The notes below the pieces were generated by a model, which saw only the letters and a program-made list of their open reading frames with translations, was not told where the DNA came from and made no database searches. From a virus, in IMG/VR virus record IMGVR_UViG_3300044742_000375: DNA of 64,000 bases. One strand, written 5' to 3'. Each line of letters starts with the position of its first letter. Positions within the stretch are counted from its first letter, which is position 1. The translations under genes and the position numbers were made by a program. Shown here piece by piece: positions 1,068 to 24,691 of this stretch.

Positions 1068-1114
1068 GTTACTCCCGCAATGCCAACATCTGGCGTTGAT
1101 ATTACGGGAGTAAC
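1068..1114 (+). promoter_or_regulatory. inverted repeat that can sequester the Shine-Dalgarno of the first plus-arm gene
   Basis: GTTACTCCCG 1068-1077 is the exact reverse complement of CGGGAGTAAC 1105-1114 (SD of ATG 1117); 27-nt spacer with inner GCCA/TGGC hairpin 1082-1094. Confidence 0.4.
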
Positions 1115-1116
1115 CA

Positions 1117-1335
1117 ATGCAAACCCAACGCACAATCACTCTGATCTGCACTCGCGAACCCGCTACCGGCCGCACCATGGTGCGTCCCGCGTGCGAACTC
1201 TACCGCACACTTGAGCAGGCAACGCGCCAGGTGCTGCGCCGCGAATATGAGAGTGGCATCATGACCTACCTGTACGCGGTGCCAATCCTACCCACCAATT
1301 GGTGCAACGTCGACAACGTGGAAACCCGCTTCTGA
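1117..1335 (+). CDS. hypothetical early protein (72 aa)
   Basis: track ORF; ATG preceded by junction motif ATTACGGGAGTAACC 1101-1115. Confidence 0.6.
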   Translation: MQTQRTITLICTREPATGRTMVRPACELYRTLEQATRQVLRREYESGIMTYLYAVPILPTNWCNVDNVETRF

Positions 1336-1350
1336 TCGTTGCTTTCGTGG

Positions 1351-1370
1351 ATGCGCCGCGCGCGGCGCAT
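1351..1370. other. perfect 20-nt palindrome ATGCGCCGCGCGCGGCGCAT after gene stop
   Basis: read in sequence; 15 nt downstream of stop at 1333-1335; no U-tract. Confidence 0.5.
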
Positions 1371-1403
1371 CTATGAGCGCACCGCTCAATACGGGAGTAA
1401 CGC

Positions 1404-1706
1404 ATGGCCAAACACAAGCGCCAGCCCAAGGCTGGCGAACTCGCGAACAAACCGAGCAAACCGTTCGCGGAACGCCCGCGCGGCGTGCCGCTGGACAATT
1501 TTCGCCCGATACATCGCGCCGCGCCTGACAGCGAAAAGATCCCGACGATCTGGCCCGAACGGATGATCATCCGACGCTTCACCGCCGGTCCCCAGACCAA
1601 CACATGGCGGATCAAGGGAAACATGATGGGCGGGAGCACGGGAGCGTGCAAAGGCATCACGTCGGCGCCGGACGTGGCGCGGGCTTTCATCGGAACGAAA
1701 GGCTAA
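1404..1706 (+). CDS. hypothetical basic early protein (100 aa)
   Basis: track ORF; ATG preceded by CAATACGGGAGTAACGC 1387-1403. Confidence 0.6.
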   Translation: MAKHKRQPKAGELANKPSKPFAERPRGVPLDNFRPIHRAAPDSEKIPTIWPERMIIRRFTAGPQTNTWRIKGNMMGGSTGACKGITSAPDVARAFIGTKG

Positions 1707-1710
1707 CATC

Positions 1711-1863: not shown

Positions 1864-1866
1864 ACC

Positions 1867-2034
1867 ATGCGACATGATGATATCGTGCTTTCGTTCCTGA
1901 TCGTTTACGACGGTAGTGACGATAGCATACCCTCGCCGGATCAGGATGATTACGATCCGGCCGAACCCCTGGCGCCATACCCCGATGATCACGGTATGGA
2001 CGTGCTTGAATTCTTTCAACGCTACGACCGCTGA
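1867..2034 (+). CDS. small acidic protein (55 aa)
   Basis: below track cutoff; ATG 3 nt after previous stop; MRHDDIVLSFLIVYDGSDDSIPSPDQDDYDPAEP...; GC3 only about 58%. Confidence 0.35.
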   Translation: MRHDDIVLSFLIVYDGSDDSIPSPDQDDYDPAEPLAPYPDDHGMDVLEFFQRYDR

Positions 2035-2041
2035 GCTTACG

Positions 2042-2306: not shown

Positions 2307-2381
2307 CATGAGCGCACCGCTCAACGCGGCATCGAATGATCCGCGCGCCTGTCCCAAACCTTACTACCGGAGTGAAACCAC

Positions 2382-3335
2382 ATGGCTAAAATCGTCGAGA
2401 TCGCTTCCGACCGCGTGCTTGACATCGCCTCGCGTATTCGCGCGGCTTGCGTGGCCCTCGCGGAACCCGAGGACCGCAAGTTCGAAGCGATGGAAGCCGC
2501 GCAAGGCGCGGCCAATGACGGCAACAACACCCGGCTGTCCGTCATAACCGACATCGCGGCCATGTCGCACGCGGAGGAATGGACCCACGCGGAAGTGGCG
2601 CAAGCCTGTGAACGCGCCGCGAAAATGGGCAACTCGGCCGACGGCGAACAATCCCGGTCCGCGCGGTCCGTGGGCGTGTTCATATCGGAGATGAAAACCT
2701 TCGCCTCGCCCAAGGTTCGCGGCCACCTGCCCGACCTGCGCGCCACCTGCGAAGCGGTCTGGGCCGACGAAACGGAATTGCTGGCGAGCGTGGAACGCGA
2801 GGACCGCGACGCCATCGAAACGCCCGTGCGCAAGTGGCAAAGCCGATTTTATCACCTGATCATGAACGTCTCACGCGCGGTCAAAGAGGGCAAGCTGACC
2901 GCGCCGATGAGCAAGGACGATCTGATCGCCTACGCGGTCGCGAACGATCCCGACCACAATGCCACGAAAGTGGCCGCGCGGCTCAAAACCCTGATCGGCC
3001 AGATCGACGGTTTTCACGCGGACTTCGAGATGGAAGAGCTCAAGATCGCGGCCGACTACCTGCGCACCATCAGCACCGACGAACTGATGGCCGCGCGCAA
3101 GGCCCTCGTGGCCGCGCGGGCGGCGTTGAACCCGCCTCCGGTGTGGACACCGCCCGTCCTGGTCTCGCCCGCTCCAGCCCCCATCCAGGGCGTGAGTCAG
3201 GCCGATACCGGCGAAGCCGGGAGCGGCGACGAGGTAGCTAACGGTGTGTTTGATTATGAGGACGATATCCTGGGCGATGGCGTGGCGCGTCAACAGGCGA
3301 GTCAGTTGGTCATGGCCGCGCTCGTAGCGGCGTGA
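2382..3335 (+). CDS. hypothetical protein (317 aa)
   Basis: track ORF; ATG preceded by TTACTACCGGAGTGAAACC 2361-2379. Confidence 0.75.
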   Translation: MAKIVEIASDRVLDIASRIRAACVALAEPEDRKFEAMEAAQGAANDGNNTRLSVITDIAAMSHAEEWTHAEVAQACERAAKMGNSADGEQSRSARSVGVFISEMKTFASPKVRGHLPDLRATCEAVWADETELLASVEREDRDAIETPVRKWQSRFYHLIMNVSRAVKEGKLTAPMSKDDLIAYAVANDPDHNATKVAARLKTLIGQIDGFHADFEMEELKIAADYLRTISTDELMAARKALVAARAALNPPPVWTPPVLVSPAPAPIQGVSQADTGEAGSGDEVANGVFDYEDDILGDGVARQQASQLVMAALVAA

Positions 3336-3375
3336 GGTGGTCAATCATTTACTACGGTAGTATGGGAAGCAGTGT

Positions 3376-3431
3376 GCGGGGGATTACGTCCCCCGCTCGC
3401 TTGCTCTAACGCGTGCGTTAGCTCGCACGCG
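3376..3431 (+). terminator. two consecutive GC-rich hairpins downstream of gene 2382-3335
   Basis: GCGGGGG-ATTACGT-CCCCCGC 3376-3396 and CGCGTGCG-TTAGCT-CGCACGCG 3410-3431; weak T-richness after first. Confidence 0.3.
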
Positions 3432-3479
3432 CTAGGCTAGGCGAGCAAATATAACCAACGAGCTAGGGCAAATCGAATG

Positions 3480-3960
3480 ATCCGTTACGCCAGTGCACAC
3501 TAACATTTGTTTGGCGCGCCATGAATGTCGAGTGCTGCCGAATAACTCATTGATCCGACGAGCTATAACTAAGTTTGACAGCGATTTTATCAGGGTCGAC
3601 CGCCTAATAACTTATTGATATTATTAAAATTTATATATAGTATGTTATAACTGATGTATAATTGCATCGGGACAACGATACGTGATGCGTGAGACTTCCA
3701 ATGCATGCATTACGCAATACCCCCCGCTCCCTAAGGGCCTCATGTTTGGAGCAATTATACAGCAGTGATAACATGCCGCGTATGATATCATGTTTGATCA
3801 GTCACTTATTCGGTAGTGAACTCTGTCAAATCCGTGGTCAAGCTTCTCGGAGTTTGACCGTCGAGGATGACATTTTGTCCATAATAGCATATGTCTGACA
3901 CTGACGGGCTGTATCTTGTTATGCACTCCGGTAGTAAACGATCAACCCCAACGTAAGGAT
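3480..3960. other. AT-rich intergenic island (candidate origin and/or early promoter region)
   Basis: hand count 174 G+C in 420 nt (41%) for 3541-3960, 18% for 3601-3660; iteron-like AATAACTNATTGAT at 3541-3556 and 3606-3620, ATAACT also at 3565 and 3647; sigma70-like TTGATA(3615)-17-TAGTAT(3638) and TATAAT 3657-3662. Confidence 0.4.
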
Positions 3961-3970
3961 TTAGCGTACC

Positions 3971-4432
3971 ATGAAGAAACCTGAAACACCCTCTCCGCCG
4001 CCCTTCGAGACCAATACCCCACGCTTCGACGCTAACAATCCCGGTCGCAAGTGTCGCACCTGTAGAGAATATCGGGCCAATAATGACTACGAGTCGCACC
4101 GGCATAAGATCTGTCTCTACTGTAAGGAACGTCGCGTGATGCGCTCGCTACCCGGTCGGGTGAAGTTGCTCGAAGCCGAGCGGAAGGCGAGTGGGGTTCC
4201 GGCGATCACGATGACGTACGAGGGGCGCGCCAAATACCAACGCGACCGCTACCGCGAAAAGCGCGGGCAGAAGGAGATAACCGGCCCTCGGCTCGCCGCC
4301 CGCGTGTGCCGTCGGTGCCATGTGTACAAACCAATCACCGAGTTCCTTACCGATTGGGCGCGCGTCTGCCTCGCGTGCGACAACCCCGAAGCCCGGGCCA
4401 TACGCTGGCGCAACCCACAACTGCCACGTTAA
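3971..4432 (+). CDS. Cys-rich protein with two predicted CxxC...CxxC zinc ribbons (possible regulator)
   Basis: track ORF; CRTC...CLYC and CRRC...CLAC pairs; TAAGGA 12 nt upstream; first gene after AT-rich island. Confidence 0.7.
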   Translation: MKKPETPSPPPFETNTPRFDANNPGRKCRTCREYRANNDYESHRHKICLYCKERRVMRSLPGRVKLLEAERKASGVPAITMTYEGRAKYQRDRYREKRGQKEITGPRLAARVCRRCHVYKPITEFLTDWARVCLACDNPEARAIRWRNPQLPR

Positions 4433-4447
4433 TACGGGAGTGAAACC

Positions 4448-4603
4448 ATGAACTTCGATGACGATGATGACGACTATGACGCCGACAACGATCCCATTGT
4501 CCAGGAATGGGAGAAACGTTTCGAGGGCATGACGCCCGAACAGGTCGACGCCTACATGGAGGCGGCATGGCGGCGGCTGCTGTGCCTGCCGACGTTGCAC
4601 TAA
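4448..4603 (+). CDS. small highly acidic protein (51 aa)
   Basis: below track cutoff; TTAATACGGGAGTGAAACC 4429-4447 then ATG; MNFDDDDDDYDADNDPIVQEWEKRF...; stop is the TAA of the next junction motif. Confidence 0.5.
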   Translation: MNFDDDDDDYDADNDPIVQEWEKRFEGMTPEQVDAYMEAAWRRLLCLPTLH

Positions 4604-4617
4604 TACGGGAGTGAAAT

Positions 4618-4797: not shown

Positions 4798-4871
4798 TCC
4801 CGCGCGTCGAGCAGGGCCGCACCGCTCTTGGGCGGGGCGAACCGCGAGGTAACTAATACAGGAGTGAAACC

Positions 4872-5057: not shown

Positions 5058-5058
5058 C

Positions 5059-5307
5059 ATGATGACCAGACAACACTACAAGGTGCTTGCCGCGTCCATC
5101 GCCACCATCGAGCACCCGTTGGTCAGGGGTATGGCGGCCAGGACCCTGGGCAAGGCGCTATGCGAGGACAACCCGCGTTTCGACCTCGACACGTGGCTGG
5201 CCGCGTGCGGCGTGGTCCGGTATCGCGACATGCTATCCGACGAGGCGACACCCGCCAGGGTGAAGCGTGCGAAAGTGAAGGCGGCGCTTAATACGGGAGT
5301 GAAATAA
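5059..5307 (+). CDS. hypothetical early protein (82 aa)
   Basis: track ORF; starts 1 nt after previous stop; C-terminus ...LNTGVK encoded by next junction motif. Confidence 0.6.
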   Translation: MMTRQHYKVLAASIATIEHPLVRGMAARTLGKALCEDNPRFDLDTWLAACGVVRYRDMLSDEATPARVKRAKVKAALNTGVK

Positions 5308-5598: not shown

Positions 5599-5622
5599 CG
5601 ACCTTTAATACGGGAGTGAAAC

Positions 5623-5779: not shown

Positions 5780-5800
5780 AACTTAATACGGGAGTGAAAC

Positions 5801-6263: not shown

Positions 6264-6381
6264 GTTGACGCTGACGACGTACCTGTTGTTGGCGCAGTGG
6301 CAACCATACGTGTTGCTGCCGCTCCATTTCCCGCCGCAACCGGGCGTCCCGGCATGGGGCGCGCCACCGCCGTGCAAGTGA
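6253..6381 (+). CDS. small hydrophobic peptide (42 aa), first member of a duplicated two-gene cassette
   Basis: below cutoff; GC3 about 83% versus about 61% for the competing frame; TGATG overlap with next gene; MMLELTLTTYLLLAQWQPYVLLPL... Confidence 0.35.
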   Translation: MMLELTLTTYLLLAQWQPYVLLPLHFPPQPGVPAWGAPPPCK

Positions 6382-6638
6382 TGGACTGGTATGTCGGGCC
6401 GGTTTACCCCGAGGATGGCGGGGCGTCGCGCTGGGTGGAGGCGGACACCGGCATCGGCGCCATCGAGGCGTGGCTACGGCTATGTCACGCGGCTGGGTAC
6501 GAGTGGAGCGGGTGTGCGATATCCGCGTGGCCTTCACTCGGCTGGGACGCGTGGCACGAGGACAAACCCGGCGGCGTCATGACGCCCCGGAACTCGCTGG
6601 CCATCATGGCCATCATCGAAACATTACGACAGGAGTGA
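6381..6638 (+). CDS. hypothetical Trp-rich protein (85 aa), paralogue of 6764-7024
   Basis: in frame with track ORF 6297-6638; shares WVEADTG..EAWLRL...AIIETLRQE with 6764-7024. Confidence 0.55.
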   Translation: MDWYVGPVYPEDGGASRWVEADTGIGAIEAWLRLCHAAGYEWSGCAISAWPSLGWDAWHEDKPGGVMTPRNSLAIMAIIETLRQE

Positions 6639-6763: not shown

Positions 6764-7024
6764 ATGAGCGCCGCATACGTCGGCGGTGACGGCATGCCCG
6801 CGTCCGCCTGGGTCGAGGCCGACACGGCGACGCTCGCGCTGGAGACGTGGCTGCGCGCGTTATACGCGGACGGGTGGCGGTATCCAGGCGGGAGTGTCGC
6901 CGCCATCCCGCTCACGCGCCCAGGCGAGTTTGGGCGCGCGGCCCGGTTCGACGAGACCTCGCCGGTATTGTTGGCGATAATTGAAACCTTACGACGGGAG
7001 AAACCTCGCCGGTATTGCTGGTGA
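6764..7024 (+). CDS. hypothetical Trp-rich protein (86 aa), paralogue of 6381-6638
   Basis: in frame with track ORF 6470-7024; C-terminus extended by the 47-bp tandem duplication. Confidence 0.55.
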   Translation: MSAAYVGGDGMPASAWVEADTATLALETWLRALYADGWRYPGGSVAAIPLTRPGEFGRAARFDETSPVLLAIIETLRREKPRRYCW

Positions 7025-7049
7025 TAATTGAAACCTTACGACGGGAGTG
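6956..7049 (+). repeat. 47-bp tandem duplication of gene 3' end plus junction motif
   Basis: ACCTCGCCGGTATTG(T/C)TGG(C/T)GATAATTGAAACCTTACGACGGGAG at 6956-7000 and 7003-7047; first copy has GGGAGAAA instead of GGGAGTGA, so its stop is lost. Confidence 0.85.
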
Positions 7050-7053
7050 AGAC

Positions 7054-7077
7054 CCGCTCAGCTGGGCTGAGCGGTTT
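7054..7077 (+). terminator. hairpin CCGCTCAGC-TGG-GCTGAGCGG followed by TTT
   Basis: 9-bp stem read in sequence between the small-gene cluster and the AAA+ ATPase gene. Confidence 0.45.
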
Positions 7078-7108
7078 CGAACGACCGGGATCAACAAGGA
7101 GTGAACGA

Positions 7109-8278
7109 ATGAACCTCAATCAGGCTGTACAGGTCATCACGCGCACGCATATCGCGGCGCTGAGCGCGGGCCATCGGGCCAACGCCATCGAACTCAAGTC
7201 GGGCCCCGGCGTCGGCAAGTCCAGCGCCATCGACCAGGTATGCGCTCTGTTGGCGCGAATGCTGAACGAGCCCGTTGGGCTCACCGTCGAGATGCTCGCC
7301 ACCATCCAGAGCATCGACATACGCGGGTTCATGATCCCGCAGAAAACCAGCGACGGTAAGTTGGGCACGATCTTCTCGACCCCGCCATGGTATCCCACCG
7401 CGTTGAATACCATCGTGTTCACGCCCGACGGTAGGAAGTATCTCAAGGGCGAGTGGACCGGACCGACGCCGCGCGTGGGCATCACTTTCCTCGACGAGTT
7501 CGGTCAGGCCGACGACGACTGCAAGAAAGCCGCCGCCGAACTGGTGCTGCATGGCGAGGTGGGCAACACGCGCCTGCCCCAGGGATGGCGCGTCATCGCC
7601 GCCAGCAACCGCCTGAGCGACCGGGCCGGTGTCATGCGCGCGCTGACCTTCGTGACCAACAGGCGGATGGAGATACTCGTGGAGGGCCACCTGCCGACGT
7701 GGAACGATTGGGTGGACGGGCTCGATATCGCCGAACAGCCGCATCACCTGACCGTGAGTTTCGCGAACAAGTCCCCGGACCTGGTATTTCGCGACGCCGT
7801 GCCGCCCGGTGACGGTCCTTTTTGCACGCCGCGCACGCTCGTGCTGATGGACCGGGATCTTCGGGCACTACGTAGTAAAGAGGAGGTGGTTTCGGGTCGG
7901 CTGCCCATGGACGCCGTCGCGCGCGAGGTATGCTCGGGCTGGATCGGCGGCGGCGAGTCCGCGCAGTATTTCACTCACATCAGGTTCGCGGATTTGCTAC
8001 CGGATATCGCGGACATCGAGAAAGATCCCATGACCGCGAAACTTCCCGCCGCGCGTGACGCGCAGATGGTGTGCGCCTATATGTTGGCGCATAACGTCTC
8101 ACCAACCAACGGAGACAAAATCATCAGGTATATCAATCGTCTCAACATCGAGATGCAAACCCTGGCGGTGCAGACCATCACCAAACAGCCCCAGCGGGGC
8201 AAGATGGTGGCGAACTCGCCGATGTTCACGAAATGGCTGATCGACCACAAAGACCTTCTGATCGCGGCGCACGCGTGA
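7109..8278 (+). CDS. MoxR-like AAA+ ATPase
   Basis: in frame with track ORF 7028-8278; ATG after AAGGAGTGAACGA; Walker A GPGVGKS, Walker B ITFLDEF. Confidence 0.85.
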   Translation: MNLNQAVQVITRTHIAALSAGHRANAIELKSGPGVGKSSAIDQVCALLARMLNEPVGLTVEMLATIQSIDIRGFMIPQKTSDGKLGTIFSTPPWYPTALNTIVFTPDGRKYLKGEWTGPTPRVGITFLDEFGQADDDCKKAAAELVLHGEVGNTRLPQGWRVIAASNRLSDRAGVMRALTFVTNRRMEILVEGHLPTWNDWVDGLDIAEQPHHLTVSFANKSPDLVFRDAVPPGDGPFCTPRTLVLMDRDLRALRSKEEVVSGRLPMDAVAREVCSGWIGGGESAQYFTHIRFADLLPDIADIEKDPMTAKLPAARDAQMVCAYMLAHNVSPTNGDKIIRYINRLNIEMQTLAVQTITKQPQRGKMVANSPMFTKWLIDHKDLLIAAHA

Positions 8279-8314
8279 GCCCACGCGATACAACCTTTAC
8301 GACGGGAGTGAATA

Positions 8315-8689: not shown

Positions 8690-8717
8690 CTACCGTCGTA
8701 AACAACAGGAGTGAACA

Positions 8718-9653
8718 ATGGATTCTATGAGCACTGCTACCGACGCACCCGTGGATGATACACTCAGGCGCGAGGATCTGACCGAGGCGGTGCGCGCCAC
8801 CGCGCTATTGGCGGATCTCACCATCCACCTGTGGTCCGGCGAGCGCACCGACCGCGCGTTGGGTGATAAGATCAAGAACGCCGAGGGCGCGGTCGGCAAC
8901 ACCGGACGCTACCTCAAGAACCTGCTGGCCGGTTGCGACGTCGAACTGAAGGACGTGAAAGCGTCCTACATGGCCGCGCGCGCCGCGCACTACCAACTCA
9001 CGCTGCCATGGGTGAGCAACGCCACGTCGCAGCGCCAGCAGGGACCCAGATTGCTGCCGAACATGCTGTTCGACCGCTACCTCAACGAGATGAGCAAGCT
9101 GCGGCGCGCGGCCATCGGCAAGCGGGATAATTTCGTGCTCGAATACCCGCGTCTCGTGGCCCAGGCCCAGAACAATCTCGCGGGCATGGCCAAGCCCGAG
9201 GACTATCCCGATCAGGAGGAAATAAGGGCATCGTTCAAACTCTCGTTCGACTTCCTGCCCATCCCCTCGGCGGGGGCGTTCCAGGGCCTGCCGGACGGCA
9301 TGCTGGAGCGCCTGGGTAATCAGCTGAGAGCGCGCCAGCTGGCCGCCGTGAACACCGCCCAGGCGGCCATGTGGGACCGTGTTCGCGAGGCGGTGGACAA
9401 TATGATCGAGCGGCTGGACGACCCGACCGCCATCTTCAAGGTGAACACCATCGACAACGTGCGTGAACTGATCACCCTGCTGCCCGGTTTCAACTGTGCC
9501 GGGGACGACCGGGTTAATACGGTAGTGGCCGATATCGACCGCATGCTGGACGGGATCACGCCGAAAATGCTCAGGCAATCGCAGGAGGCGCGCGCCGACG
9601 TGACACGACAGGCCAAGGCCATCAACGACAAACTCACATCATGGGGATTATGA
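8718..9653 (+). CDS. hypothetical protein (311 aa) between the ATPase and VWA genes
   Basis: track ORF; CAGGAGTGAACA then ATG; no catalytic motif recognised. Confidence 0.7.
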   Translation: MDSMSTATDAPVDDTLRREDLTEAVRATALLADLTIHLWSGERTDRALGDKIKNAEGAVGNTGRYLKNLLAGCDVELKDVKASYMAARAAHYQLTLPWVSNATSQRQQGPRLLPNMLFDRYLNEMSKLRRAAIGKRDNFVLEYPRLVAQAQNNLAGMAKPEDYPDQEEIRASFKLSFDFLPIPSAGAFQGLPDGMLERLGNQLRARQLAAVNTAQAAMWDRVREAVDNMIERLDDPTAIFKVNTIDNVRELITLLPGFNCAGDDRVNTVVADIDRMLDGITPKMLRQSQEARADVTRQAKAINDKLTSWGL

Positions 9654-9654
9654 C

Positions 9655-9900
9655 ATGGTAACGAATGAACGCGCGTCCGGCGGCAGGTTCGGCATGGTGC
9701 TCGCTGGCGGACCCGGCGAGGACAACTGGTACGACATCGTGTTCCACGAGCCGGGGCGGATGGACCGCGTGCTCGCGCGCCGCGCGCTGCACGATGACGC
9801 GGTGACGATAGTGGAAGGACTCAACCTGCGAGATGACCGCCGCAGGTTTTTCGACGCGCACCCCGACGCGAGGGAGTTGCCCATTCCAGGCGTGGAATAA
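9655..9900 (+). CDS. hypothetical protein (81 aa)
   Basis: track ORF; starts 1 nt after previous stop. Confidence 0.55.
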   Translation: MVTNERASGGRFGMVLAGGPGEDNWYDIVFHEPGRMDRVLARRALHDDAVTIVEGLNLRDDRRRFFDAHPDARELPIPGVE

Positions 9901-10061
9901 TGGACGACGATGAAAAACTAATAAACGCGGCTCATGAGTTCGTGGCGAGCATGATGCCGCGAGCGGACAGCTTGCCCTCTTTGACCGCGCGCGAGTGGGC
10001 GCTGCGTGAAGCGTTCATCGCCGGGGCTGTATGGCGAGAGGAAAACTTACGACAGGAGTGA
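9900..10061 (+). CDS. hypothetical small protein (53 aa)
   Basis: below cutoff; TAATG overlap; C-terminus ...NLRQE encoded by junction motif. Confidence 0.4.
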   Translation: MDDDEKLINAAHEFVASMMPRADSLPSLTAREWALREAFIAGAVWREENLRQE

Positions 10062-11760: not shown

Positions 11761-11879
11761 TGCGACCCATGATGGACTGGCTGTCCACCGTGAGTTTCGA
11801 TGCTTTCGACGCCACCATACTGATATGCATGGGCGTGCTTATCGGCGTGGGGATAGGACAACGTTTACGACGGGAGTGA
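11757..11879 (+). CDS. small membrane peptide (40 aa)
   Basis: below cutoff; ATGA overlap; ...ATILICMGVLIGVGIGQRLRRE, tail encoded by junction motif. Confidence 0.35.
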   Translation: MMRPMMDWLSTVSFDAFDATILICMGVLIGVGIGQRLRRE

Positions 11880-14575: not shown

Positions 14576-14751
14576 TCGACGTTCCCGAAGGTTTCGAGGA
14601 CTGTGCATGGGTATGCGAGTGTCGTAAGCCTGATGGTAGCACCGAAACGACTTTCTGGATTACCCAGGATGGGGCTTACGAGATGGAGACCGAGACGGAG
14701 CGGGCGTTCCCCGGAACGGTATGTGAGGTATTCCCCATAGTTGCATATTGA
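14572..14751 (+). CDS. hypothetical small Cys-containing protein (59 aa)
   Basis: in frame with track ORF 14494-14751; GGAGTGAACCA then ATG; ATGA overlap with polymerase stop. Confidence 0.45.
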   Translation: MIDVPEGFEDCAWVCECRKPDGSTETTFWITQDGAYEMETETERAFPGTVCEVFPIVAY

Positions 14752-14801
14752 CATTGCGCGAAATCTCCACGACGCTACTACCGTCGTAAAAGGAGAACCC
14801 A

Positions 14802-15848: not shown

Positions 15849-16342
15849 GCACCTACCTGCGCCGCACCGTGGCGGAACAATCCAAAATCTATCAGGCGAT
15901 CAAGGACCGGGCCGCTGAATATCTGGTGTTGCACACATGCTTTCGTAAAAGCGCCGTGATCGCCGACCTGAACCTGGAAGCGTTCGCCGACTCGATCCGC
16001 TGGGATTACATCCGCGATATGCTTCAGGATATACACAAGGACGTGGAGATCATCCCCATGGCCGAAGCCTTTTTCAAAGGTTACATCGAGGTGGATGGCG
16101 TCAAGCGGCAAAATACACCAGCGTTGCAGAAGCGGTTGCCTGAACGGTTCATCGCGTCGGGACACGGTAAGAAAGCCGCTGGTTATGTTCTGGCCGTGCC
16201 TGACAACGGGCACTTCGTCCTGAAGGTCATGAGCCATAAAAACGCCGTGGCGACGGGCACTCGCAAGGCCGCTGATAAGTTCACTCGCAACGCTCGGTTG
16301 GCTGGTGTACCCATGCCGGAACGCATCGAGGTATCGCGATGA
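15845..16342 (+). CDS. hypothetical protein (165 aa)
   Basis: track ORF; ATGA overlaps at both ends. Confidence 0.65.
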   Translation: MSTYLRRTVAEQSKIYQAIKDRAAEYLVLHTCFRKSAVIADLNLEAFADSIRWDYIRDMLQDIHKDVEIIPMAEAFFKGYIEVDGVKRQNTPALQKRLPERFIASGHGKKAAGYVLAVPDNGHFVLKVMSHKNAVATGTRKAADKFTRNARLAGVPMPERIEVSR

Positions 16343-17016
16343 GCACTACGGTCGTAAATCCCGAGAGGTTCTCCTGGAGCTACACGGCGCTGAAGAATTT
16401 CGAGACCTGCCCGCGCCGCTACTACGCCTACAACGTCTCCAGGGACGTCAAGGAGCCCGAGGGCAAGGCCCTGGTCGAGGGCAAGCGCATCCACGAGGCG
16501 TTCGACGCCCGCGTGGGCCGTGGCACGCCCCTGCCGCCCGATCTGGTGCCGCACGAGGGCTTGCTGAACAAGCTGGCCAACGCCGAGGGGACGGTGCGCA
16601 CGGAACAAAAACTGGCGCTGGACAGCGGGCTGACGCCGTCCAAATTCTTCGGAAGCGGCGCGTGGTTCCGCATGGTGCTGGACTACACCAACATCAACGG
16701 CGAGAACGCCACCGTCATCGACTACAAGACGGGCAAGCCGACCGAGGATATGACGCAGCTTCAGCTGGCGGCGGTCATGACTTTCGCCCACTCGACCAGG
16801 ACCAAACGCATCCGCGCGGCCCTGGTGTTCATAGCGTATGATCATATCGAACGGGCGACGTTCACCCGTGAGAGCGTGACCGAGATCTGGGGGGATATCC
16901 TTCCCCGCGTGAGGAAAATGATCGATGCCAGACAAACCCAGGAGTATCCTCCAAACCCTGGCGGGCTATGTCGGCGTTGGTGCGCCGTTACTTCCTGTCC
17001 CTTCCATGGAAAATGA
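16339..17016 (+). CDS. Cas4-like PD-(D/E)xK exonuclease with four-Cys cluster
   Basis: track ORF; N-terminal FETCPRRYY, IDYKTGKP, C-terminal CRRWCAVTSCPF. Confidence 0.8.
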   Translation: MSTTVVNPERFSWSYTALKNFETCPRRYYAYNVSRDVKEPEGKALVEGKRIHEAFDARVGRGTPLPPDLVPHEGLLNKLANAEGTVRTEQKLALDSGLTPSKFFGSGAWFRMVLDYTNINGENATVIDYKTGKPTEDMTQLQLAAVMTFAHSTRTKRIRAALVFIAYDHIERATFTRESVTEIWGDILPRVRKMIDARQTQEYPPNPGGLCRRWCAVTSCPFHGK

Positions 17017-17636: not shown

Positions 17637-17951
17637 ATGCCGACACCGGAAGGCAGGGTAAAAAATAAAATCAGAAAATTGCTTGACCGATACGAAAATA
17701 ACATATATTACTTCATGCCGGTGCCGATGGGTCTCGGCTCGCGGACGGTGGACTTCCTGTGCTGCGCCAATGGGCGCTTCTTCTCCATCGAGGCGAAGGC
17801 GAAGAAGGGCCGCGTGACGCGGTTGCAGGACGTGGTCATGACCCGCATGCGTGACGCGGGCGCCGTGACGTTCCTGATCGTCGGCGAAGACGACGTCGAG
17901 GGCTTCGGCGAACTGGAAGAATATCTGGAAGGAGTGATGGTACAAGGATGA
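17637..17951 (+). CDS. VRR-NUC family nuclease
   Basis: track ORF; VDFLCC...FFSIEAKAKKG (D...ExK); TCACGACGGGAGTAAAAG then ATG. Confidence 0.75.
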   Translation: MPTPEGRVKNKIRKLLDRYENNIYYFMPVPMGLGSRTVDFLCCANGRFFSIEAKAKKGRVTRLQDVVMTRMRDAGAVTFLIVGEDDVEGFGELEEYLEGVMVQG

Positions 17952-19556: not shown

Positions 19557-19588
19557 ACGAAAATGGGGTTTACGACGGGAGTGAAGGA

Positions 19589-19786
19589 GTGAGTACTCAA
19601 AAGAGGATACGTGAACTTGAGAAGAAGGGTTACGTGGTCACCAAGACCAACGGCCAGCATCTCAGACTGACCAAGCCCGGCGTGACCGGCGTGGTCTTCA
19701 CGAGCAGCACGCCGGGCGATGGCGCGCGGGGTGACAAGGAGCTTCAACGAAATCTGCGGCATGTATTCGGTAGGAGTGAAACATGA
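19589..19786 (+). CDS. HicA-like small protein (possible mRNA interferase fold)
   Basis: track ORF, GTG start after TTTACGACGGGAGTGAAGGA; RIRELEKKGYVVTKTNGQHLRLTKPG matches the HicA pattern ...G..........GSH.... Confidence 0.4.
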   Translation: MSTQKRIRELEKKGYVVTKTNGQHLRLTKPGVTGVVFTSSTPGDGARGDKELQRNLRHVFGRSET

Positions 19787-20223
19787 GCGAGGCAGCCGAA
19801 CGTCCACGCATGACGATGGACAACATGATAGAAAAATACGTTAAAATTCGTGACAAAAAGAAGGTGCTGGAGGACCAGCACAAGGAGGCGATGAAGCCCT
19901 ACACCGACACGCTCGACAGACTGGAAGCATATATGTTGGAGGCGATGAACCAGTCGGGGCTGAAGTCGATGAAGTCACCGCACGGCACCGCTTATCAGGC
20001 TGTGCGCACGTCCGCCAAGGTCACGGACTGGGCGGCGGCGTTGGGGTACATACGTGAACATCAGGCATGGGATCTGTTGGAGGCGCGGATCTCCAAACTC
20101 GCGTTACAGGAGCTAACCGCTACGACGAAAGACGTCGTGCCGGGTGTTGAAACTTCATCGGAGGTGGTAGTCAATGTGCGACGCGCCACCGATACTAAAA
20201 CTTTATCCACAGACAGGGAGTGA
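19783..20223 (+). CDS. hypothetical coiled-coil protein (146 aa)
   Basis: track ORF; AGGAGTGAAAC then ATG; ATGA overlap. Confidence 0.6.
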   Translation: MSEAAERPRMTMDNMIEKYVKIRDKKKVLEDQHKEAMKPYTDTLDRLEAYMLEAMNQSGLKSMKSPHGTAYQAVRTSAKVTDWAAALGYIREHQAWDLLEARISKLALQELTATTKDVVPGVETSSEVVVNVRRATDTKTLSTDRE

Positions 20224-20228
20224 TACCC

Positions 20229-21281
20229 ATGGACAATCAGTTGGTTACCCTCGGTGCCGCGCCACGTCATTTGATGGGCGCCGCCGGGCTCAAGCTCAAT
20301 CAGGCGGCGCGCGCCAATCTGCAGGCGTCGTTCGCGGTTCTGAAAATTCGTGGCAAGAACTGGCGCGTGCGTTATCGGGGTGACGAAACCCTGATCGCGA
20401 TGTCGGCTGGCACCGATCACAACGGCAGGCCGCTGCCGGAAACGCCCGTGCAATACGTCGACATGGTGGTCGTGGGTATCGCCACGGCGATCAGCAAGAA
20501 GTGGTATCAGTCGGGCTTCGCCAGCGGTGAAGCGAAAGCTCCTGATTGCTTCAGCGTGAACGGGGTATCACCCGATCCAGCGTCGGCGCTGGTGCAGAAC
20601 ACCATGTGCGCGACATGCCCGCAGAACATCTGGGGCTCGGCCACGACCGAGAACGGACGCAAGGCGAAGGCGTGCCGCGACGGTCGCCGCATCGCCATGG
20701 TCCCAAGCGGCGATGTGCATAACGATACCTTTGGTGGACCCATGCTGCTGGACATCCCGCCGACGTCGCTTGCTAATCTCGACCGTTACACACGTCATCT
20801 GGAACGCCTGGGCGCCGACATTTCCCAGGTGGTCACCCGCATCGGCTTCAATCCGCAGGTGACGCATCAGGAACTGACGTTCAACAGCATCGGCTGGATC
20901 GAGAGCGCCGAGGACTACTCGACCGTCATCGAGCATGGTCGTTCCGACATCGTGCAGCGCATGCTGGAGGACGCGACGGTGGAGGTGACGTCCGAACCGG
21001 CGGCGCTGGGGGCGCGTCCGGCGCACCTTCAGATCGTGCGTCAGTCCCCGGCGGCGCAGGTCGCTCCGGACCAACCGGAGGAGCCCAAACCACAACCGGC
21101 GCCCATGCCCATGCCGACGCCTACCCCGCCGCCCCCGCCAGCGCCACCGGCAGCGGCGACCGCGACGCCGCGCAAGGCGACGGGGTTCACGGCGCCGACA
21201 ACGCCGTCGCCCACCGTCGTCATCCAGGGTGCTCCCGCCTCGCTGGAGGACGAGATCAGTTCCCTGCTCAGCGATAACTGA
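20229..21281 (+). CDS. hypothetical protein with Cys cluster, Pro-rich linker and acidic C-terminal tail (possible ssDNA-binding protein)
   Basis: in frame with track ORF 20220-21281; GGGAGTGATACCC then ATG; CATCPQ...KACRDG; ...PPPPPAPPAAATA...SLEDEISSLLSDN; function is inference only. Confidence 0.65.
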   Translation: MDNQLVTLGAAPRHLMGAAGLKLNQAARANLQASFAVLKIRGKNWRVRYRGDETLIAMSAGTDHNGRPLPETPVQYVDMVVVGIATAISKKWYQSGFASGEAKAPDCFSVNGVSPDPASALVQNTMCATCPQNIWGSATTENGRKAKACRDGRRIAMVPSGDVHNDTFGGPMLLDIPPTSLANLDRYTRHLERLGADISQVVTRIGFNPQVTHQELTFNSIGWIESAEDYSTVIEHGRSDIVQRMLEDATVEVTSEPAALGARPAHLQIVRQSPAAQVAPDQPEEPKPQPAPMPMPTPTPPPPPAPPAAATATPRKATGFTAPTTPSPTVVIQGAPASLEDEISSLLSDN

Positions 21282-21295
21282 GGCCGACCTTCCTG

Positions 21296-21329
21296 GGGGG
21301 CGCGGCTGGCACCGCGCCCCCTGTTTATT
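21296..21329 (+). terminator. rho-independent-type terminator
   Basis: GGGGGCGCGG-CTGGCA-CCGCGCCCCC (10-bp stem) followed by TGTTTATT. Confidence 0.6.
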
Positions 21330-21341
21330 CGGGGGTCAACA

Positions 21342-24287
21342 ATGAGAACGGCAGCGGATACAGAAGGCTTTTTAACGCGCGTGGTTCCCGGTCAGGGGAA
21401 TTATCTGACGATCACATGGAAGGGCGAGGGGCGGGGCTGGACGGTACGGAGCTTCCCTCCGTCGAGCATACCCCAGGCGGCGAGTTGGTTACGCTGGGCG
21501 GTGAAGGTCAAAGCCGACGCCTACTTCGCCGTCGCCGCCTACAACATGGCCGAGATCGGCACGTCCCAGAAGGGCGAGCCCACGGTGCGGGCCAAGCGCG
21601 AACAGACCAACGTCCACCTGATACGCACGTTGGTCATGGACGCCGACGTCAAGCGCGACGGCGACAACAAAGATCCCACCAAGGTTTTTCACGACCGTAG
21701 TAAAGCCGTTGAGTGGCTCAAGGCTTTCACCAAGGCCACCGACATGCCGATGCCCAGCGTGTGGGTGAACAGCGGCTACGGGTTCCACTGGTACTGGGTG
21801 CTGGAGGACGCCGTCGGGCTCGACGCGTGGCAACCCATGGCGTTCGCGCTGCGCGAGGCGATGATCGCGCATGGCTGGGTGGGCGACACGGCGCCCACGG
21901 TGGACGGCGCGCGCATCATGCGCCCGCCTGGAACATACAACTTCAAGTCGGGTATCCCCGTCCCGGTCGAGGGGTTCCCGAAGCTCTCCCAGGGTGACTA
22001 CGCCAACCAGGATATCCTGACCAAGCTGACGCCCTGGATGGGGGCGCAGAAGGCGCGCGCCACCGGCACGCATGGCGGCGCCACCGTCACGTCCATCGGC
22101 CCACGCCCCTCCCACATCCCGCCGGGTGGGTCGGGGCTGAACCAGTCGGCTCGTGTCGAGAGCCGGTTCCTGTTCGCCGAGATCGCCAAGAGATGCGAGC
22201 AGATCAAGCAGTCCCTGGCCGTGGGGGGCAACGGTGACCCCTATCCGATCTGGTATCTGGGCCACGTCTCGACCGCCGTGCACACCAAAGACGGCAAGGA
22301 CTTCATCCACCCCATCAGCCAGGGCGACCCTCGTTACGATGCCGGGAAGGTCGACGAGGCTTACGCGCGGGCCGAGAAGGAGACGGACAGCAAGATCCTC
22401 GGCGCGCCCACCTGTAATCATTACGACAAGAACCGCCCCGGCGTGTGCGGGAATTGTCCGTTCAACGGCAAGGTCACATCGCCTCTGTCGCTGGGCGTGG
22501 ACGTGACCGACCTGCCGTATAAGTACAGACGGACGGTGATAGCGGGTGAACCGGCCATCCAGCGCATGGACGGCAAGGGCGAGGACGCCGAGTGGGTGCC
22601 TTTGTTCCTGGGCGACGTGGCGCACCCCCGGTTGGACGAACTCGCCACGGGCGGGCACCGGCTGAGCTTCACCTACAGGTTGGCGGGGCGGGATCACTCG
22701 GTCGGCGCCAACGAAGCCGACATGACCTCGCAGATCCAGGTGGGCTACTTCTCGAAGCAGGGCGTGGCGGTCACGCGGCATAGTGTCGCGCACGCGGGAG
22801 ACTTCGTAATGGCGTGGATATCGCAGCTGCGGCTGCAACAGACCACCAAGAACGAAGTGGTGCGCCCCTTCGGATGGAACATCGGCGTGAAGGGCGAGCG
22901 GATCGGCGTGGCCATCGCGGGCACGCTCTACAAGGCCGACGGTAGTATCGACCGCGTACCGGGTGGCGACCCCAAGATCGCCGCCATGTACCGGCCCGCC
23001 GGGACCATGGACAACTGGCGCAAGGCGGCGGCGCTGTTCGAGAATGGCCGCGCCGATCTGCAGACCGTCATCGGCACGTCGTTCGGCGCCCCGCTCATAT
23101 CCCTGTCCGGTGACATACGCGGCATGACCATGAGCTTCTGGTCGACCGAGAGCGGCATCGGCAAGAGCACCGCGATCAAGGTGGGCCAGTCGGTGTGGGG
23201 CGACGCCAAGGCGATGCAGTCGATGCAGGACACGCCCAACGCGGTGATGCGCTCGCTCAGCGAGCCGCGCATATTGATACGCTATTGGGATGAGCTACGC
23301 GTGAGCAAGGAGTATCAGGAAGCGTTCGTGAACATGATCTTCACCATCCCGCAGGGTAAGGAGCGCGCTCGTTTGCAATCCGATACCACGCTGCGCGAGG
23401 TGGGCGAGTGGGAGACCATGCTGGTGTTCACGAGCAATCGTCCATGCCAGGACTACCTGCTCGCGCGCGACGACGGCACCGACTCGGGTCTGGCCCGGCT
23501 GCTGGAGGTCGAGATGGCGAAGGTCCCGACGGTGTTCGATCCGCTCGCCGGTCAGTCCATCAAGCTGTGCGAGAACAACTACGGGCACGCCGGTCGGGTC
23601 TACCTGCAGTATCTGGCGACGCACCTGCCCGAGGTGCAGTCCAAGCTGGCTTCGGTCATGAAGTCGCTCAGCATCGGACTGAACATGCAACGTGACGAAC
23701 GGTTCAGCGTGACCGCCATGACCTGCGTGCTGGTGGGCGCGTCCATCGCGCGCAAGCTGAACCTGTTCAACTTCGATCTGGCGGGCATCCACGACGTGCT
23801 CAAGAGGGCGTTCCTGGCGCAGCGCGAGGCGCGATCCAGCCGCACCATGGTGTCGGCGTCGGGCGGGCTGGACGTGGAGGAGATCGTCAACAACTACGTC
23901 TACGCCATGGCCGACTACCGGCTGCGCACCGACAACTTCGCCGGGTCCGGCGCGGGCAAGGTTGGGTTGCTGGGCGTGCCGAGGGGCAACGTGGTGCGCC
24001 TGCAGATCGCGGTGGCGGCGAAGGTGCTGCGGGTGAACCGGGCGTCGTTCAACGAGTGGCTGCACTCGCGCGGCCTTCCGGCCACCGTCATCATCAAACA
24101 ACTGGTGGAGAAGATGGGGGCGAAGGATTATCGTAAGACATTGGGTGGCGGCACTGGTTTCGGTGGCGGAACGGGCCATGTGCTGGACATCCCGTTGACC
24201 GGAAGGCTGGCCGACATAGCCAACCCGATCAGCGACGACGAGGTCGCGGCCATGCTGCGTAAGTCCCCGGCGGACGCGACGAAGTAA
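21342..24287 (+). CDS. bifunctional primase-polymerase / SF3-type helicase
   Basis: track ORF; prim-pol motifs VMDADVK and SGYGFHWYW; P-loop ESGIGKST about 600 aa in. Confidence 0.85.
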   Translation: MRTAADTEGFLTRVVPGQGNYLTITWKGEGRGWTVRSFPPSSIPQAASWLRWAVKVKADAYFAVAAYNMAEIGTSQKGEPTVRAKREQTNVHLIRTLVMDADVKRDGDNKDPTKVFHDRSKAVEWLKAFTKATDMPMPSVWVNSGYGFHWYWVLEDAVGLDAWQPMAFALREAMIAHGWVGDTAPTVDGARIMRPPGTYNFKSGIPVPVEGFPKLSQGDYANQDILTKLTPWMGAQKARATGTHGGATVTSIGPRPSHIPPGGSGLNQSARVESRFLFAEIAKRCEQIKQSLAVGGNGDPYPIWYLGHVSTAVHTKDGKDFIHPISQGDPRYDAGKVDEAYARAEKETDSKILGAPTCNHYDKNRPGVCGNCPFNGKVTSPLSLGVDVTDLPYKYRRTVIAGEPAIQRMDGKGEDAEWVPLFLGDVAHPRLDELATGGHRLSFTYRLAGRDHSVGANEADMTSQIQVGYFSKQGVAVTRHSVAHAGDFVMAWISQLRLQQTTKNEVVRPFGWNIGVKGERIGVAIAGTLYKADGSIDRVPGGDPKIAAMYRPAGTMDNWRKAAALFENGRADLQTVIGTSFGAPLISLSGDIRGMTMSFWSTESGIGKSTAIKVGQSVWGDAKAMQSMQDTPNAVMRSLSEPRILIRYWDELRVSKEYQEAFVNMIFTIPQGKERARLQSDTTLREVGEWETMLVFTSNRPCQDYLLARDDGTDSGLARLLEVEMAKVPTVFDPLAGQSIKLCENNYGHAGRVYLQYLATHLPEVQSKLASVMKSLSIGLNMQRDERFSVTAMTCVLVGASIARKLNLFNFDLAGIHDVLKRAFLAQREARSSRTMVSASGGLDVEEIVNNYVYAMADYRLRTDNFAGSGAGKVGLLGVPRGNVVRLQIAVAAKVLRVNRASFNEWLHSRGLPATVIIKQLVEKMGAKDYRKTLGGGTGFGGGTGHVLDIPLTGRLADIANPISDDEVAAMLRKSPADATK

Positions 24288-24307
24288 CCAACCAAGGAGT
24301 GATCGAC

Positions 24308-24691
24308 ATGAGTGCCGAAAGTGAAGACCGTATGCGGCGGGCCAAGGCTATCCTGGCCAGGATGCGTGGCGAAGACGCCGAGGGGTTGGCCCGGTACACC
24401 GACCCGGATACGTCCCACGAAGCGGCGCGTGGCGTCAGCACGACGCTTCTGAAGCAAATAATATTGCTCACCCTCAAAGACTATGGCCACCCCATGGCCA
24501 TGATGGAACTCGCCACCGCGAACGCGATGGGGCGTGACAGCCTGTCTCCCCGACGTCCGGCCATGATCGAGGAAGGCACCGTCGTGGAAATGGGCAGGCG
24601 TAGCTGCGTTAACGCCAACGGCAACGTGCGTAGCATGATCGCCATCGGTCTGCCCGAATGGGTCATCGAACTGCCTGTCGCGGCGGAATAA
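24308..24691 (+). CDS. putative winged-helix DNA-binding protein
   Basis: in frame with track ORF 24299-24691; AAGGAGTGATCGAC then ATG; last gene of plus arm. Confidence 0.55.
   Translation: MSAESEDRMRRAKAILARMRGEDAEGLARYTDPDTSHEAARGVSTTLLKQIILLTLKDYGHPMAMMELATANAMGRDSLSPRRPAMIEEGTVVEMGRRSCVNANGNVRSMIAIGLPEWVIELPVAAE

Follow-up and report, generated by a model that had tools for sequence, protein, structure and literature searches.

The 64,000-nucleotide (nt) window analysed here, the whole stretch taken from IMG/VR virus record IMGVR_UViG_3300044742_000375, raises the question of why a phage should place nearly the same block of sequence ahead of one gene after another. An earlier note on this DNA had described the block, at 1101–24310, as a cassette joining stop codon, ribosome-binding site (RBS) and start codon, and had offered three roles for it: a site for a factor that co-regulates early genes, an RNA processing site or a linker for the shuffling of gene cassettes. 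We find that a degenerate 15-base-pair (bp) dyad element occurs throughout the genome, with the junction cassette as its RBS form, and we propose that a dimeric protein may bind this element as double-stranded DNA.

The cassette itself is real. Its first 16-mer, TAATACGGGAGTGAAA, is exact at 4430, 4601, 5289, 5606 and 5784 and has 19 matches at up to three mismatches (0.13 expected); the second flavour, TTTACGACGGGAGTGAA, is exact at 8296, 11864 and 19569 and has 22 matches (0.11 expected). With upstream regions aligned on GGAG, the block is present ahead of 16 of 16 starts that had been listed as clear, and the stop codons placed within it were confirmed for six upstream open reading frames (ORFs; Table 1). 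The copies listed as weaker fall into two kinds: those before 7109, 8718, 14572, 19783, 20229, 24308 and, on the − strand, 59543 hold only the right half, GGAGTGA, and that before 46302 (− strand) is near-complete with two mismatches. The claim that conservation exceeds the needs of ribosome binding also stood, as positions outside GGAG are conserved. The triplet and spacer [TG]AC-N precedes 18 of the 40 GGAG placed 4–13 nt before starts, compared with 25 of 421 GGAG elsewhere (Fisher test, 2e-10), and T[GA]A follows 26 of these 40 compared with 18 of the 421 (Fisher test, 6e-21). The element is not restricted to gene junctions: a loose-pattern search gave matches on both strands far beyond 1101–24310, and the cassette is one arm-modified form of a dyad that is found, too, with no GGAG, within coding sequence and among the late genes of the − strand.

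A genome-wide dyad element

The element has a 7-1-7 layout, T-Y-A-M-K-M-C-S-G-K-M-K-T-R-A (for example, TTACTACCGTAGTAA), and its consensus in the window is TYAMKMCSGKMKTRA. Because the half-sites are degenerate, counting dyads with exact arms misses the motif, and a degenerate pattern is needed. Using T-[TC]-A-[CA]-[TG]-[AC]-C-[CG]-G-[TG]-[AC]-[TG]-T-[AG]-A, we obtained 20 exact sites and 41 sites at no more than one mismatch, against 0.0 and 0.4 in 30 dinucleotide shuffles. A3/T13 and C7/G9 are kept in 41, 40, 41 and 41 of the 41 sites, respectively, and T1/A15 is strong. The half-sites TTACTAC, TTACGAC, TTAATAC, TCACTCC and TTACTCC are found in either arm. In the RBS-type form, the gene-proximal arm reads GGAGT[GA]A and the distal arm TTAATAC, TTACGAC or TTACTAC; intermediate forms join this class to the sites that lack a Shine–Dalgarno (SD) sequence. 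The two forms interconvert at the orthologous site in the DNA polymerase gene, which reads TTACTACGGTCGTAT in the window, TTACTACGGGAGTAT in its relative L006 and TTACTCCGGTCGTAT in its relative L001.

Copies inside genes are under selection at the nucleotide level. There are 17 of them, compared with 2.0 ± 1.3 (maximum 6 of 300) after synonymous-codon shuffles, and 5 exact copies compared with 0.16; they fall in all three frames and, on inspection, clearly favour neither orientation. Leucine in the polymerase site is encoded by TTA and CTA (2.7% and 3.6% of leucine codons), at a position where distant relatives use CTG CTC or CTG. Orthologous sites in the late region vary only inside the degenerate alphabet (53405 and 57274 compared with relative L020).

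The genome is that of a podovirus-like phage of ~64 kb and 62% GC. In a gene map built from codon usage and RBS signals, early and replication genes occupy the + strand from 62740 across the window end to 24691, and virion genes the − strand from 62651 down to 24708. For placement counts we used 40 of the 41 sites, setting site 19671 aside as a probable false positive. Seventeen are centred within 30 nt before a start, a zone that makes up 3.6% of the genome (binomial p ~1e-14), 7 are otherwise intergenic and 16 lie inside genes. The 17 start-associated sites lie 11–24 nt before start codons, almost only in + strand early genes (16 of 41 + strand genes versus 1 of 35 − strand genes; Fisher test, 1.7e-4), and at 14 + strand genes the site centre is 11–14 nt from the start. 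Site density in the early arm is about three times that elsewhere, and in-gene sites are skewed towards the 5′ part of genes (Kolmogorov–Smirnov p = 0.014). Early genes that overlap the previous stop are without a site; those with a gap of at least ~10 nt have one. Three sites (3349, 7036 and 57274) are followed by a terminator-like hairpin instead of a start.

RBS context differs along the same division. Among early GGAG RBSs, 22 of 27 read GGAGT[GA]A, whereas late ones mostly stand in other contexts, and GGAGTGA is strongly sense-biased (24 versus 4). A GGAGCA flavour precedes four late genes, with − strand starts at 25244, 38385, 42513 and 60424 (25074–60424). This hints at class-specific RBS contexts for early and late genes.

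Relatives of the phage, both IMG/VR contigs and a cultured phage, carry lineage-specific versions of the element. The motif of L001 and L006 is the same as that of the window; L004 and L005 have TTACTCC-S-GGAGTAA, and L007 has CACTAGCTAGTG, with 16 sites in 17 kb that lie upstream of separate SDs. The cultured phage RHph_TM3_14A carries GTTACCT-N4-AGGTAAC at 41 sites with two or fewer mismatches, in both gene blocks. Many of these end 1–6 nt before ATG, their departures from symmetry are rarely compensated, and one lies right after the capsid gene, the position held by 57274 in the window. In L158 (TTACAACSGTTGTAA), L148 (TTAACAGSCTGTTAA), L167 (ACACACASTGTGTGT), L142 (TTCCCTAC-NN-GTAGGGAA), L174 (TTGTCCAGNCCGGACAAG) and the group of L146, L147 and L150 (TTACC-N6-GGTAA), the motif stands mostly directly ahead of the early-gene SD, and TTACTCCSGGAGTAA is another dyad of relatives at corresponding positions. 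The dyads of relatives adjoin or overlap early-gene SDs; L146 and L147 also have their own motif at the polymerase position where the clade of the window has its site. In L156, a plain palindrome, TTACTCACGTGAGTAA, turns into TTACTCAGGAGAGTAA at RBSs; here, in a second and independent instance, a dyad has been adapted to accommodate an SD. L003 (IMGVR_UViG_3300036869_000018) has another start cassette, AAGGAGTAAGCCAATG, seven times in 13.7 kb. A literature search by the names of the Rhizobium phages found no paper mentioning the motif.

Recognition of the element

The evidence on symmetry and folding points to an element that is recognised as double-stranded DNA. Watson–Crick pairs at variable mirror positions are not in excess of independence (11 versus 19.7, 27 versus 28.3, 22 versus 24.3 and 16 versus 19.3), and 104 pooled sites from relatives likewise show no covariation of mirror positions. 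The 21-mers around the sites fold not clearly better than shuffles, with minimum free energies of −1.8 versus −1.4 kcal/mol for the GGAG type and −1.45 versus −1.46 kcal/mol for the others. Reverse-complement symmetry, independent half-sites and the lack of a hairpin signal would together suit a two-fold symmetric protein on duplex DNA.

Our preferred reading, to which we give a probability of about 0.45, is that the sites are bound by a dimeric, sequence-specific and phage-encoded protein through which the genes of the early regulon are controlled one by one. The dimer would read the 15-bp dyad as duplex DNA. The sites gather at the 5′ ends of early genes, a position already held by the RBS in a compact genome. 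Because no other non-coding DNA is available there, the gene-proximal arm may have evolved to GGAGTRA, doubling as the SD, while the distal arm stayed a plain half-site. Control could take the form of a transcriptional roadblock or early shut-off, of which a stoperator-like block to RNA polymerase would be the most concrete version; extra sites lie inside genes, past the capsid gene and at operon ends. Authors writing on analogous repeats have likewise inferred a dimeric DNA-binding protein (PMC4351075, PMC3203893). The site for a co-regulating factor put forward in the earlier note remains the best idea, in a DNA-level rather than a RegA-like form.

We also considered a wider proposal, which we regard as doubtful: a very large, mostly uncultured podovirus group (>490 IMG/VR relatives of the DUF2201 protein described below, including cultured Rhizobium phages and contigs in Bradyrhizobium assemblies) would share one regulatory system. 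One fast-evolving dimeric DNA-binding protein would act on 15–40 dyad sites set gene by gene at early-gene starts, as a lytic counterpart of stoperators, with operator and SD merged in several lineages. The same 15 nt would then serve a regulator on DNA and the ribosome on RNA, linking the shut-off of transcription to that of translation.

Several observations weigh against a dimeric phage regulator. The tolerated half-sites (TTAATAC, TTACGAC, TCACTCC) are unusually diverse for a single protein, and the fixed distance from RBS-type sites to the start fits a role at the RNA level as well. RBS-type copies are also more uniform than a degenerate operator needs, with exact 16–17-mers in two flavours, which hints at an additional constraint or at copying in recent times. 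No lysogeny genes were found among the proteins scanned, so the immunity-repressor roadblock, the best-studied model, is not directly transferable. Finally, the binding protein was not found among the candidates examined. Two winged-helix proteins (11332–11760, with sub-threshold MarR/IclR matches, and 24308–24691) and a zinc-ribbon protein (3971–4432) are clade-restricted. The 311-amino-acid (aa) product of 8718–9653 is family-wide; its AlphaFold model (pLDDT 80.8) gave no Foldseek match in the PDB at E <= 0.001, and one of its 81 homologues is labelled 'predicted DNA-binding protein' by JGI.

Control at the RNA level is the main rival because of the fixed start spacing (site centres at 11–14 nt) and the early-specific GGAGTRA, although we consider it unlikely. 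The block in the mRNA would be bound by a RegA-like translational repressor or activator, or cut by a RegB-like endoribonuclease, switching early genes jointly; the sense bias of GGAGTGA and an unstructured left arm, rich in A and U despite the 62% GC of the genome, are in keeping with this. Reverse-complement symmetry, however, is meaningless for a single-stranded RNA site. Selection also keeps copies without GGAG within genes and in the late region, relatives put perfect palindromes upstream of a separate SD, and orphan copies stand ahead of terminator-like hairpins. Nor was there a RegA or RegB family match among the 39 proteins scanned against Pfam, or a corresponding PHROG match in the proteins scanned, though small proteins of unassigned fold remain. 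The symmetry, the in-gene copies without GGAG and the lack of pair covariation or hairpin stability likewise count against the RegA-like reading of the earlier note and against its RNA processing site. Folding of the DNA or RNA itself is very improbable. A palindrome that folded could hide the SD, with effects on translational coupling or mRNA stability, or extrude as a cruciform, and relatives with perfect arms could form stems of 6–8 bp, such as L142 with the arms given above and RHph_TM3_14A with 7-bp arms, a 4-nt loop and the SD in the 3′ arm. We rejected such a hairpin on the folding and covariation results for the window, the lack of an Rfam family at threshold and the rarely compensated departures in RHph_TM3_14A. 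Hardly credible at all is a strong extended SD simply copied with duplicated genes, for which the proper distance of GGAG from the start and the clustering of exact 16-mers at 4.4–5.8 kb could be cited. In duplexes with the 16S ribosomal RNA tail GGAUCACCUCCUUUCU, cassettes reach −9.1 and −10.9 kcal/mol, bare GGAG −8.8 and a perfect complement −25.4, with the host taken to have the conserved bacterial tail. The block adds no more than 2 kcal/mol over bare GGAG and so does not mirror an extended anti-SD. The genes behind the cassettes are unrelated, and copies of the element exist that lack GGAG or lie in coding sequence; the extended SD was rejected.

Two further explanations place the element on DNA without gene control. 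The dyad could be a mark recognised by a nuclease or nickase of the phage, by an enzyme that modifies bases or by a factor for replication priming or loading, and be merely tolerated at RBSs. Some podoviruses carry sequence-specific nicks, the motif is dyad-symmetric and genome-wide, also in genes, and the family core has VRR-NUC, PD-(D/E)XK and HNH nucleases together with a large primase-helicase. We nevertheless find such a mark improbable: a uniform mark would not give the strong enrichment at early starts and the denser early arm, a symmetric nick site would yield double-strand breaks, and the scanned proteins include no methyltransferase or modification gene. Somewhat less probable again is a portable linker, in which repeated 15–18-mers at gene borders would provide short homologies for swaps of early cassettes, like the promoter–stem-loop cassettes of T4-type phages. 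Similarity blocks with L001 begin or end within a few bases of sites 2361, 4429, 6070, 8687, 10047, 16343 and 17619, and the variable 4.4–6.7 kb keeps the cassette though many genes differ between the window and L001. Yet sites and gene borders coincide, so that breakpoints would fall there in any case. The one clearly recent exchange, at 14710–17016, does not match sites at its ends: the left end lies ~65 nt upstream of site 14775 and the right end at the end of the next gene. This leaves the shuffling idea of the earlier note without specific support; it also gives no account of the selected in-gene copies or of the lineage-specific dyad symmetry, and the authors of the Cluster O work likewise found few rearrangements at their own repeats (PMC4351075).

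Gene content, relatives and candidate proteins

The early genes encode a MoxR-like ATPase, a DUF2201 metallopeptidase/VWA protein, a family A DNA polymerase, a PD-(D/E)XK exonuclease, an SNF2-type helicase and a primase-helicase. The − strand block encodes portal, capsid and internal virion proteins and includes two giant genes. One (25257–32906) encodes a 2549-aa virion protein with similarity to DarB-like antirestriction proteins and LPD39 in its C-terminal part; the other (46672–53496) encodes a fibre of 2274 aa that contains collagen repeats and a Peptidase_S74 chaperone domain. No RNA polymerase or integrase was found in the proteins scanned and none of the window's genes was recognised as encoding a terminase large subunit; tRNA and Rfam scans of the window were empty. 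The 65-aa early protein of 19589–19786 has a sub-threshold HicA-toxin match (21.5 bits, cut-off 27). The start of the window maps ~565 nt from the end of the 64,310-bp contig of L001.

A 630-bp non-coding and locally AT-rich stretch, 3336–3970, contains several sigma-70-like hexamer pairs (for example, 3596–3643) and has dyad sites 3349 and 3923 on either side; the small genes that begin at 3971 probably have their main early promoter region here. Each copy of the 47-bp tandem duplication at 6956–7047 has at its end an orphan cassette, TTACGACGGGAG..., that is not followed by a start codon; the hairpin at 7054–7074 and the ATPase gene come next. The sites are listed in Table 1.

Table 1. Dyad sites, isolated right arms and associated features, in window coordinates.
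Feature	Position	Strand	Remarks
RBS-type site ATATTACGGGAGTAA	1099–1113	+	before start 1117; 2 mismatches to dyad consensus
RBS-type dyad site TCAATACGGGAGTAA	1386–1400	+	before start 1404
Non-SD dyad site TTACGACGGTAGTGA	1905–1919		inside weak ORF 1885–2034
RBS-type site TTACTACCGGAGTGA	2361–2375	+	before start 2382
Intergenic dyad site TTACTACGGTAGTAT	3349–3363		just past stop of 2382–3335; then hairpin 3376–3396
Intergenic dyad site GCACTCCGGTAGTAA	3923–3937		end of AT-rich promoter-like region; 34 nt ahead of start 3971
RBS-type site TTAATACGGGAGTGA	4429–4443	+	before 4448; TAA = stop of 3971–4432
RBS-type site CTAATACGGGAGTGA	4600–4614	+	before 4618; TAA = stop of 4448–4603
RBS-type site CTAATACAGGAGTGA	4853–4867	+	before 4872; 2 mismatches
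RBS-type site TTAATACGGGAGTGA	5288–5302	+	before 5307
RBS-type site TTAATACGGGAGTGA	5605–5619	+	before 5623
RBS-type site TTAATACGGGAGTGA	5783–5797	+	before 5801
RBS-type site TCACGACGGGAGTAA	6070–6084	+	before 6090
RBS-type site TTACGACAGGAGTGA	6624–6638	+	before 6642; TGA = stop of 6297–6638
47-bp tandem duplication	6956–7047	+	2 copies, 95% alike; holds two orphan sites
Orphan site TTACGACGGGAGAAA	6989–7003	+	no start codon after
Orphan site TTACGACGGGAGTGA	7036–7050	+	then terminator-like hairpin 7054–7074 and TTTCG
Right arm only, GGAGTGA	7098–7104	+	SD of 7109 (MoxR-like ATPase gene)
RBS-type site TTACGACGGGAGTGA	8297–8311	+	before 8315
Non-SD dyad site TGACTACCGTCGTAA	8687–8701		6 nt upstream of separate SD GGAGTGA (8708–8714) of 8718
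In-gene site TTAATACGGTAGTGG	9514–9528		frame 1, VNTVVA; kept in L001
RBS-type site TTACGACAGGAGTGA	10047–10061	+	before 10065; TGA = stop of 9900–10061
Right arm only, GGAGTGA	11318–11324	+	SD of 11332 (winged-helix candidate)
In-gene site TTACTCCGGTACTGA	11459–11473		
RBS-type site TTACGACGGGAGTGA	11865–11879	+	before 11886; TGA 11877–11879 = stop of 11757–11879
In-gene site TCACTCCCGGCGTAC	12069–12083		L001 form TCACTCCCGTCGTAT
In-gene site, DNA polymerase gene	13385–13399		TTA CTA CGG TCG TAT (LLRSY), rare Leu codons; kept in L001, L002, L006
Right arm only, GGAGTGA	14561–14567	+	before ATG 14572
Non-SD dyad site CTACTACCGTCGTAA	14775–14789		directly upstream of SD of 14802
In-gene site, PD-(D/E)XK exonuclease codons 2–6 (STTVV)	16343–16357		kept in L001, L006
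RBS-type site TCACGACGGGAGTAA	17619–17633	+	before 17637
Right arm only, GGAGTGA	17931–17937	+	before 17948 (helicase)
RBS-type site TTACGACGGGAGTGA	19570–19584	+	before GTG 19589
Right arm only, GGAGTGA	19773–19779	+	before 19783
Right arm only, GGAGTGA	20217–20223	+	before 20229; TGA = stop of 19783–20223
In-gene site TCACGACCGTAGTAA, primase/helicase gene	21689–21703		identical in L001
Right arm only, GGAGTGA	24296–24302	+	before 24308
Dyad site TAACTACCGTCGTAA	24689–24703		convergent junction of + and − gene blocks
In-gene site, 2549-aa virion protein gene	26578–26592		
In-gene site	32870–32884		22 nt into 2549-aa gene
In-gene site	36759–36773		kept in L090, L091, L092, L097
In-gene site	40046–40060		L097 orthologue TTACTACCGTCGTAT; changes within consensus
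In-gene site	40960–40974		identical in L092, L094 though flanks 76–85% alike
In-gene site	43739–43753		kept in L097
In-gene site	45468–45482		kept in L091, L092, L097
Site near 5′ end of ORF 45704–46078 (− strand)	46033–46047		
RBS-type site TAATTACGGGAGTAA	46307–46321	−	before − strand start 46302; 2 mismatches
In-gene site, tail-fibre gene	51168–51182		
Site TTAATACCGTAGTGA abutting ATG 53403 of 2243-aa fibre gene	53405–53419		L020 orthologue TTACTCCCGTCGTAA: 5 differences, all consensus-allowed; flanks 77% alike
Site TTACTACGGGAGTGA right past major capsid stop (57290)	57274–57288		then − strand hairpin 57254–57273; kept in L020 as TTACGACGGGAGTAA
Right arm only, GGAGTGA	59547–59553	−	before − strand start 59543
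In-gene site	62825–62839		85 nt into first + strand gene 62740–63465
Right arm only, GGAGTAA	63466–63472	+	before 63477

A megablast search with 24 kb found no close DNA relatives among GenBank phages. The nearest cultured relatives are the Rhizobium phages RHph_TM3_14A, TM27A, TM27B and TM29, with a portal 49% identical and the same gene order, and IMG/VR holds >587 relatives for the capsid and >490 for the DUF2201 protein. The most widely conserved early genes of the group, present in 20 of 20 loci compared, are those for the MoxR-like ATPase (7109–8278) and the DUF2201 protein (10065–11324); the 311-aa gene between them is present in 13 of the 20. Bradyrhizobium assemblies hold related contigs and some relatives lie inside long bacterial contigs; some family members may be integrated or carried. 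Capsid relatives on genome contigs (L102, L104, L107/L108 and L114) include ~60-kb contigs from two Bradyrhizobium isolates. Another lies at 140–161 kb of a 167-kb Candidimonas nitroreducens scaffold, and two copies share one 465-kb contig of a Pseudolabrys metagenome-assembled genome. In L007, a small protein (12333–12758) has an N-terminus that is GcrA-like by eye only (…IKRLWETTDTSMTQIALQFGMTRGQVGGMIRR…), a likeness that would point to an alphaproteobacterial host.

Further candidates for the reader of the element were rejected. A ParB_N-like protein of 348 aa (14802–15848) scores 22.5 bits against a Pfam cut-off of 26.3 and is absent from L001, which has the motif. Its gene belongs to a two-gene cassette, with a 165-aa gene, that L001 lacks and that is common only to the window and L006. 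Together with the exonuclease gene, the cassette makes up 14710–17016, which is 88% identical in nucleotides and 92–99% in amino acids to 15760–18072 of L006, with flanks at ~70% nucleotide identity. This suggests that lineages exchanged the segment horizontally not long ago. A conserved helix-turn-helix gene upstream of the polymerase was set aside, as each lineage has different and, judged by eye, apparently unrelated small helix-turn-helix-like proteins there. PDB sequence searches with the products of 20229–21281, 11886–12701, 24308–24691 and 3971–4432 gave nothing informative. A promoter for a phage RNA polymerase of T7 or N4 type was dismissed in the absence of a polymerase among the scanned proteins; the 2549-aa protein matches only DarB-like and LPD39 families and nothing in the PDB. 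Host boxes such as CtrA TTAA-N7-TTAA, LexA types and parS do not fit the consensus either, and TTAA arms are a minority.

Comparison with known systems

Dispersed repeats in phages, among them the start-associated sequences (SAS) of Cluster K and the dyad repeats of Cluster O mycobacteriophages, have been described for more than 10 years; the dyad with an RBS arm joins these two kinds, in an unrelated and very large group. Since cultured Rhizobium phages carry versions of it, what binds the repeats and what binding does are directly testable. The lineage versions form a natural co-variation set, motif type against protein sequence, for nominating the binder, and in annotation the motif marks true start codons and early-gene boundaries in these phages.

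One protein acting at many short sites of a replicon, to coordinate numerous operons or to mark the DNA, has precedents. KorB OB sites on IncP plasmids, Noc-binding sites and P1 C1 operators are arrays of 10–70 sites of 13–17 bp per replicon; here, by contrast, the sole ParB_N-like gene sits in a recently exchanged cassette absent from motif-bearing L001. RegA operators and RegB cleavage at GGAG in T4 give early genes a shared RBS signal for joint shut-off, acting on RNA only; unlike the element described here, they have no dyad symmetry and no copies in genes or on late genes.

In Cluster A mycobacteriophages, a protein bound at stoperators (L5 gp71 type) blocks elongating RNA polymerase (PMC9283540, PMC6550527). 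As here, there are dozens of short sites across the genome, mostly in short intergenic gaps, and we think a roadblock of this type the most likely mechanism for the dyad. The differences are that stoperators are asymmetric, oriented with transcription and bound by the monomeric immunity repressor of a temperate phage, whereas the sites here are symmetric and the scanned proteins include no integrase or recognisable repressor, though some family members look integrated in bacterial contigs.

The closest likenesses are to repeats of two other mycobacteriophage clusters. Those of Cluster O are a 17-bp dyad, TGTTCGG-N3-CCGAACA, with a 7-3-7 layout and >30 copies, about a third of them in genes, for which a dimeric binder was predicted (PMC4351075). 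Both systems have tens of copies, 7-bp inverted arms and a fixed spacer (here 41 sites, 7-1-7, 16–17 in genes), are denser in the non-structural arm, have in-gene copies often near the 5′ end and lack lysogeny genes. However, the Cluster O arms are invariant and separated by 3 bp, whereas the half-sites here are degenerate, separated by 1 bp and of another sequence; the Cluster O repeats are not tied to translation starts, whereas 17 of 40 sites here lie on or just before the RBS, with one arm serving as the SD. Phage group and host phylum are also unrelated.

The SAS of Cluster K mycobacteriophages is a GGAG-containing 13-mer, GGGATAGGAGCCC, 3–7 bp ahead of the starts of non-structural genes (PMC3203893). 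It resembles the cassette in its place before non-structural starts, in conservation that exceeds 16S pairing and in upstream stop codons that sometimes lie in the block; its associated inverted repeats also lack support for RNA pairing and differ between subclusters. By contrast, SAS is asymmetric, has one orientation, does not occur in genes and differs in sequence from the consensus here, and the extended SAS (ESAS) comprises a distinct pair of 17-bp repeats whose spacer varies in length, where the present element is a single compact dyad that includes the SD and also occurs without it. The element thus joins a Cluster O-like dyad and a Cluster K-like association with starts in one site, and is neither of them by sequence, symmetry or spacing.

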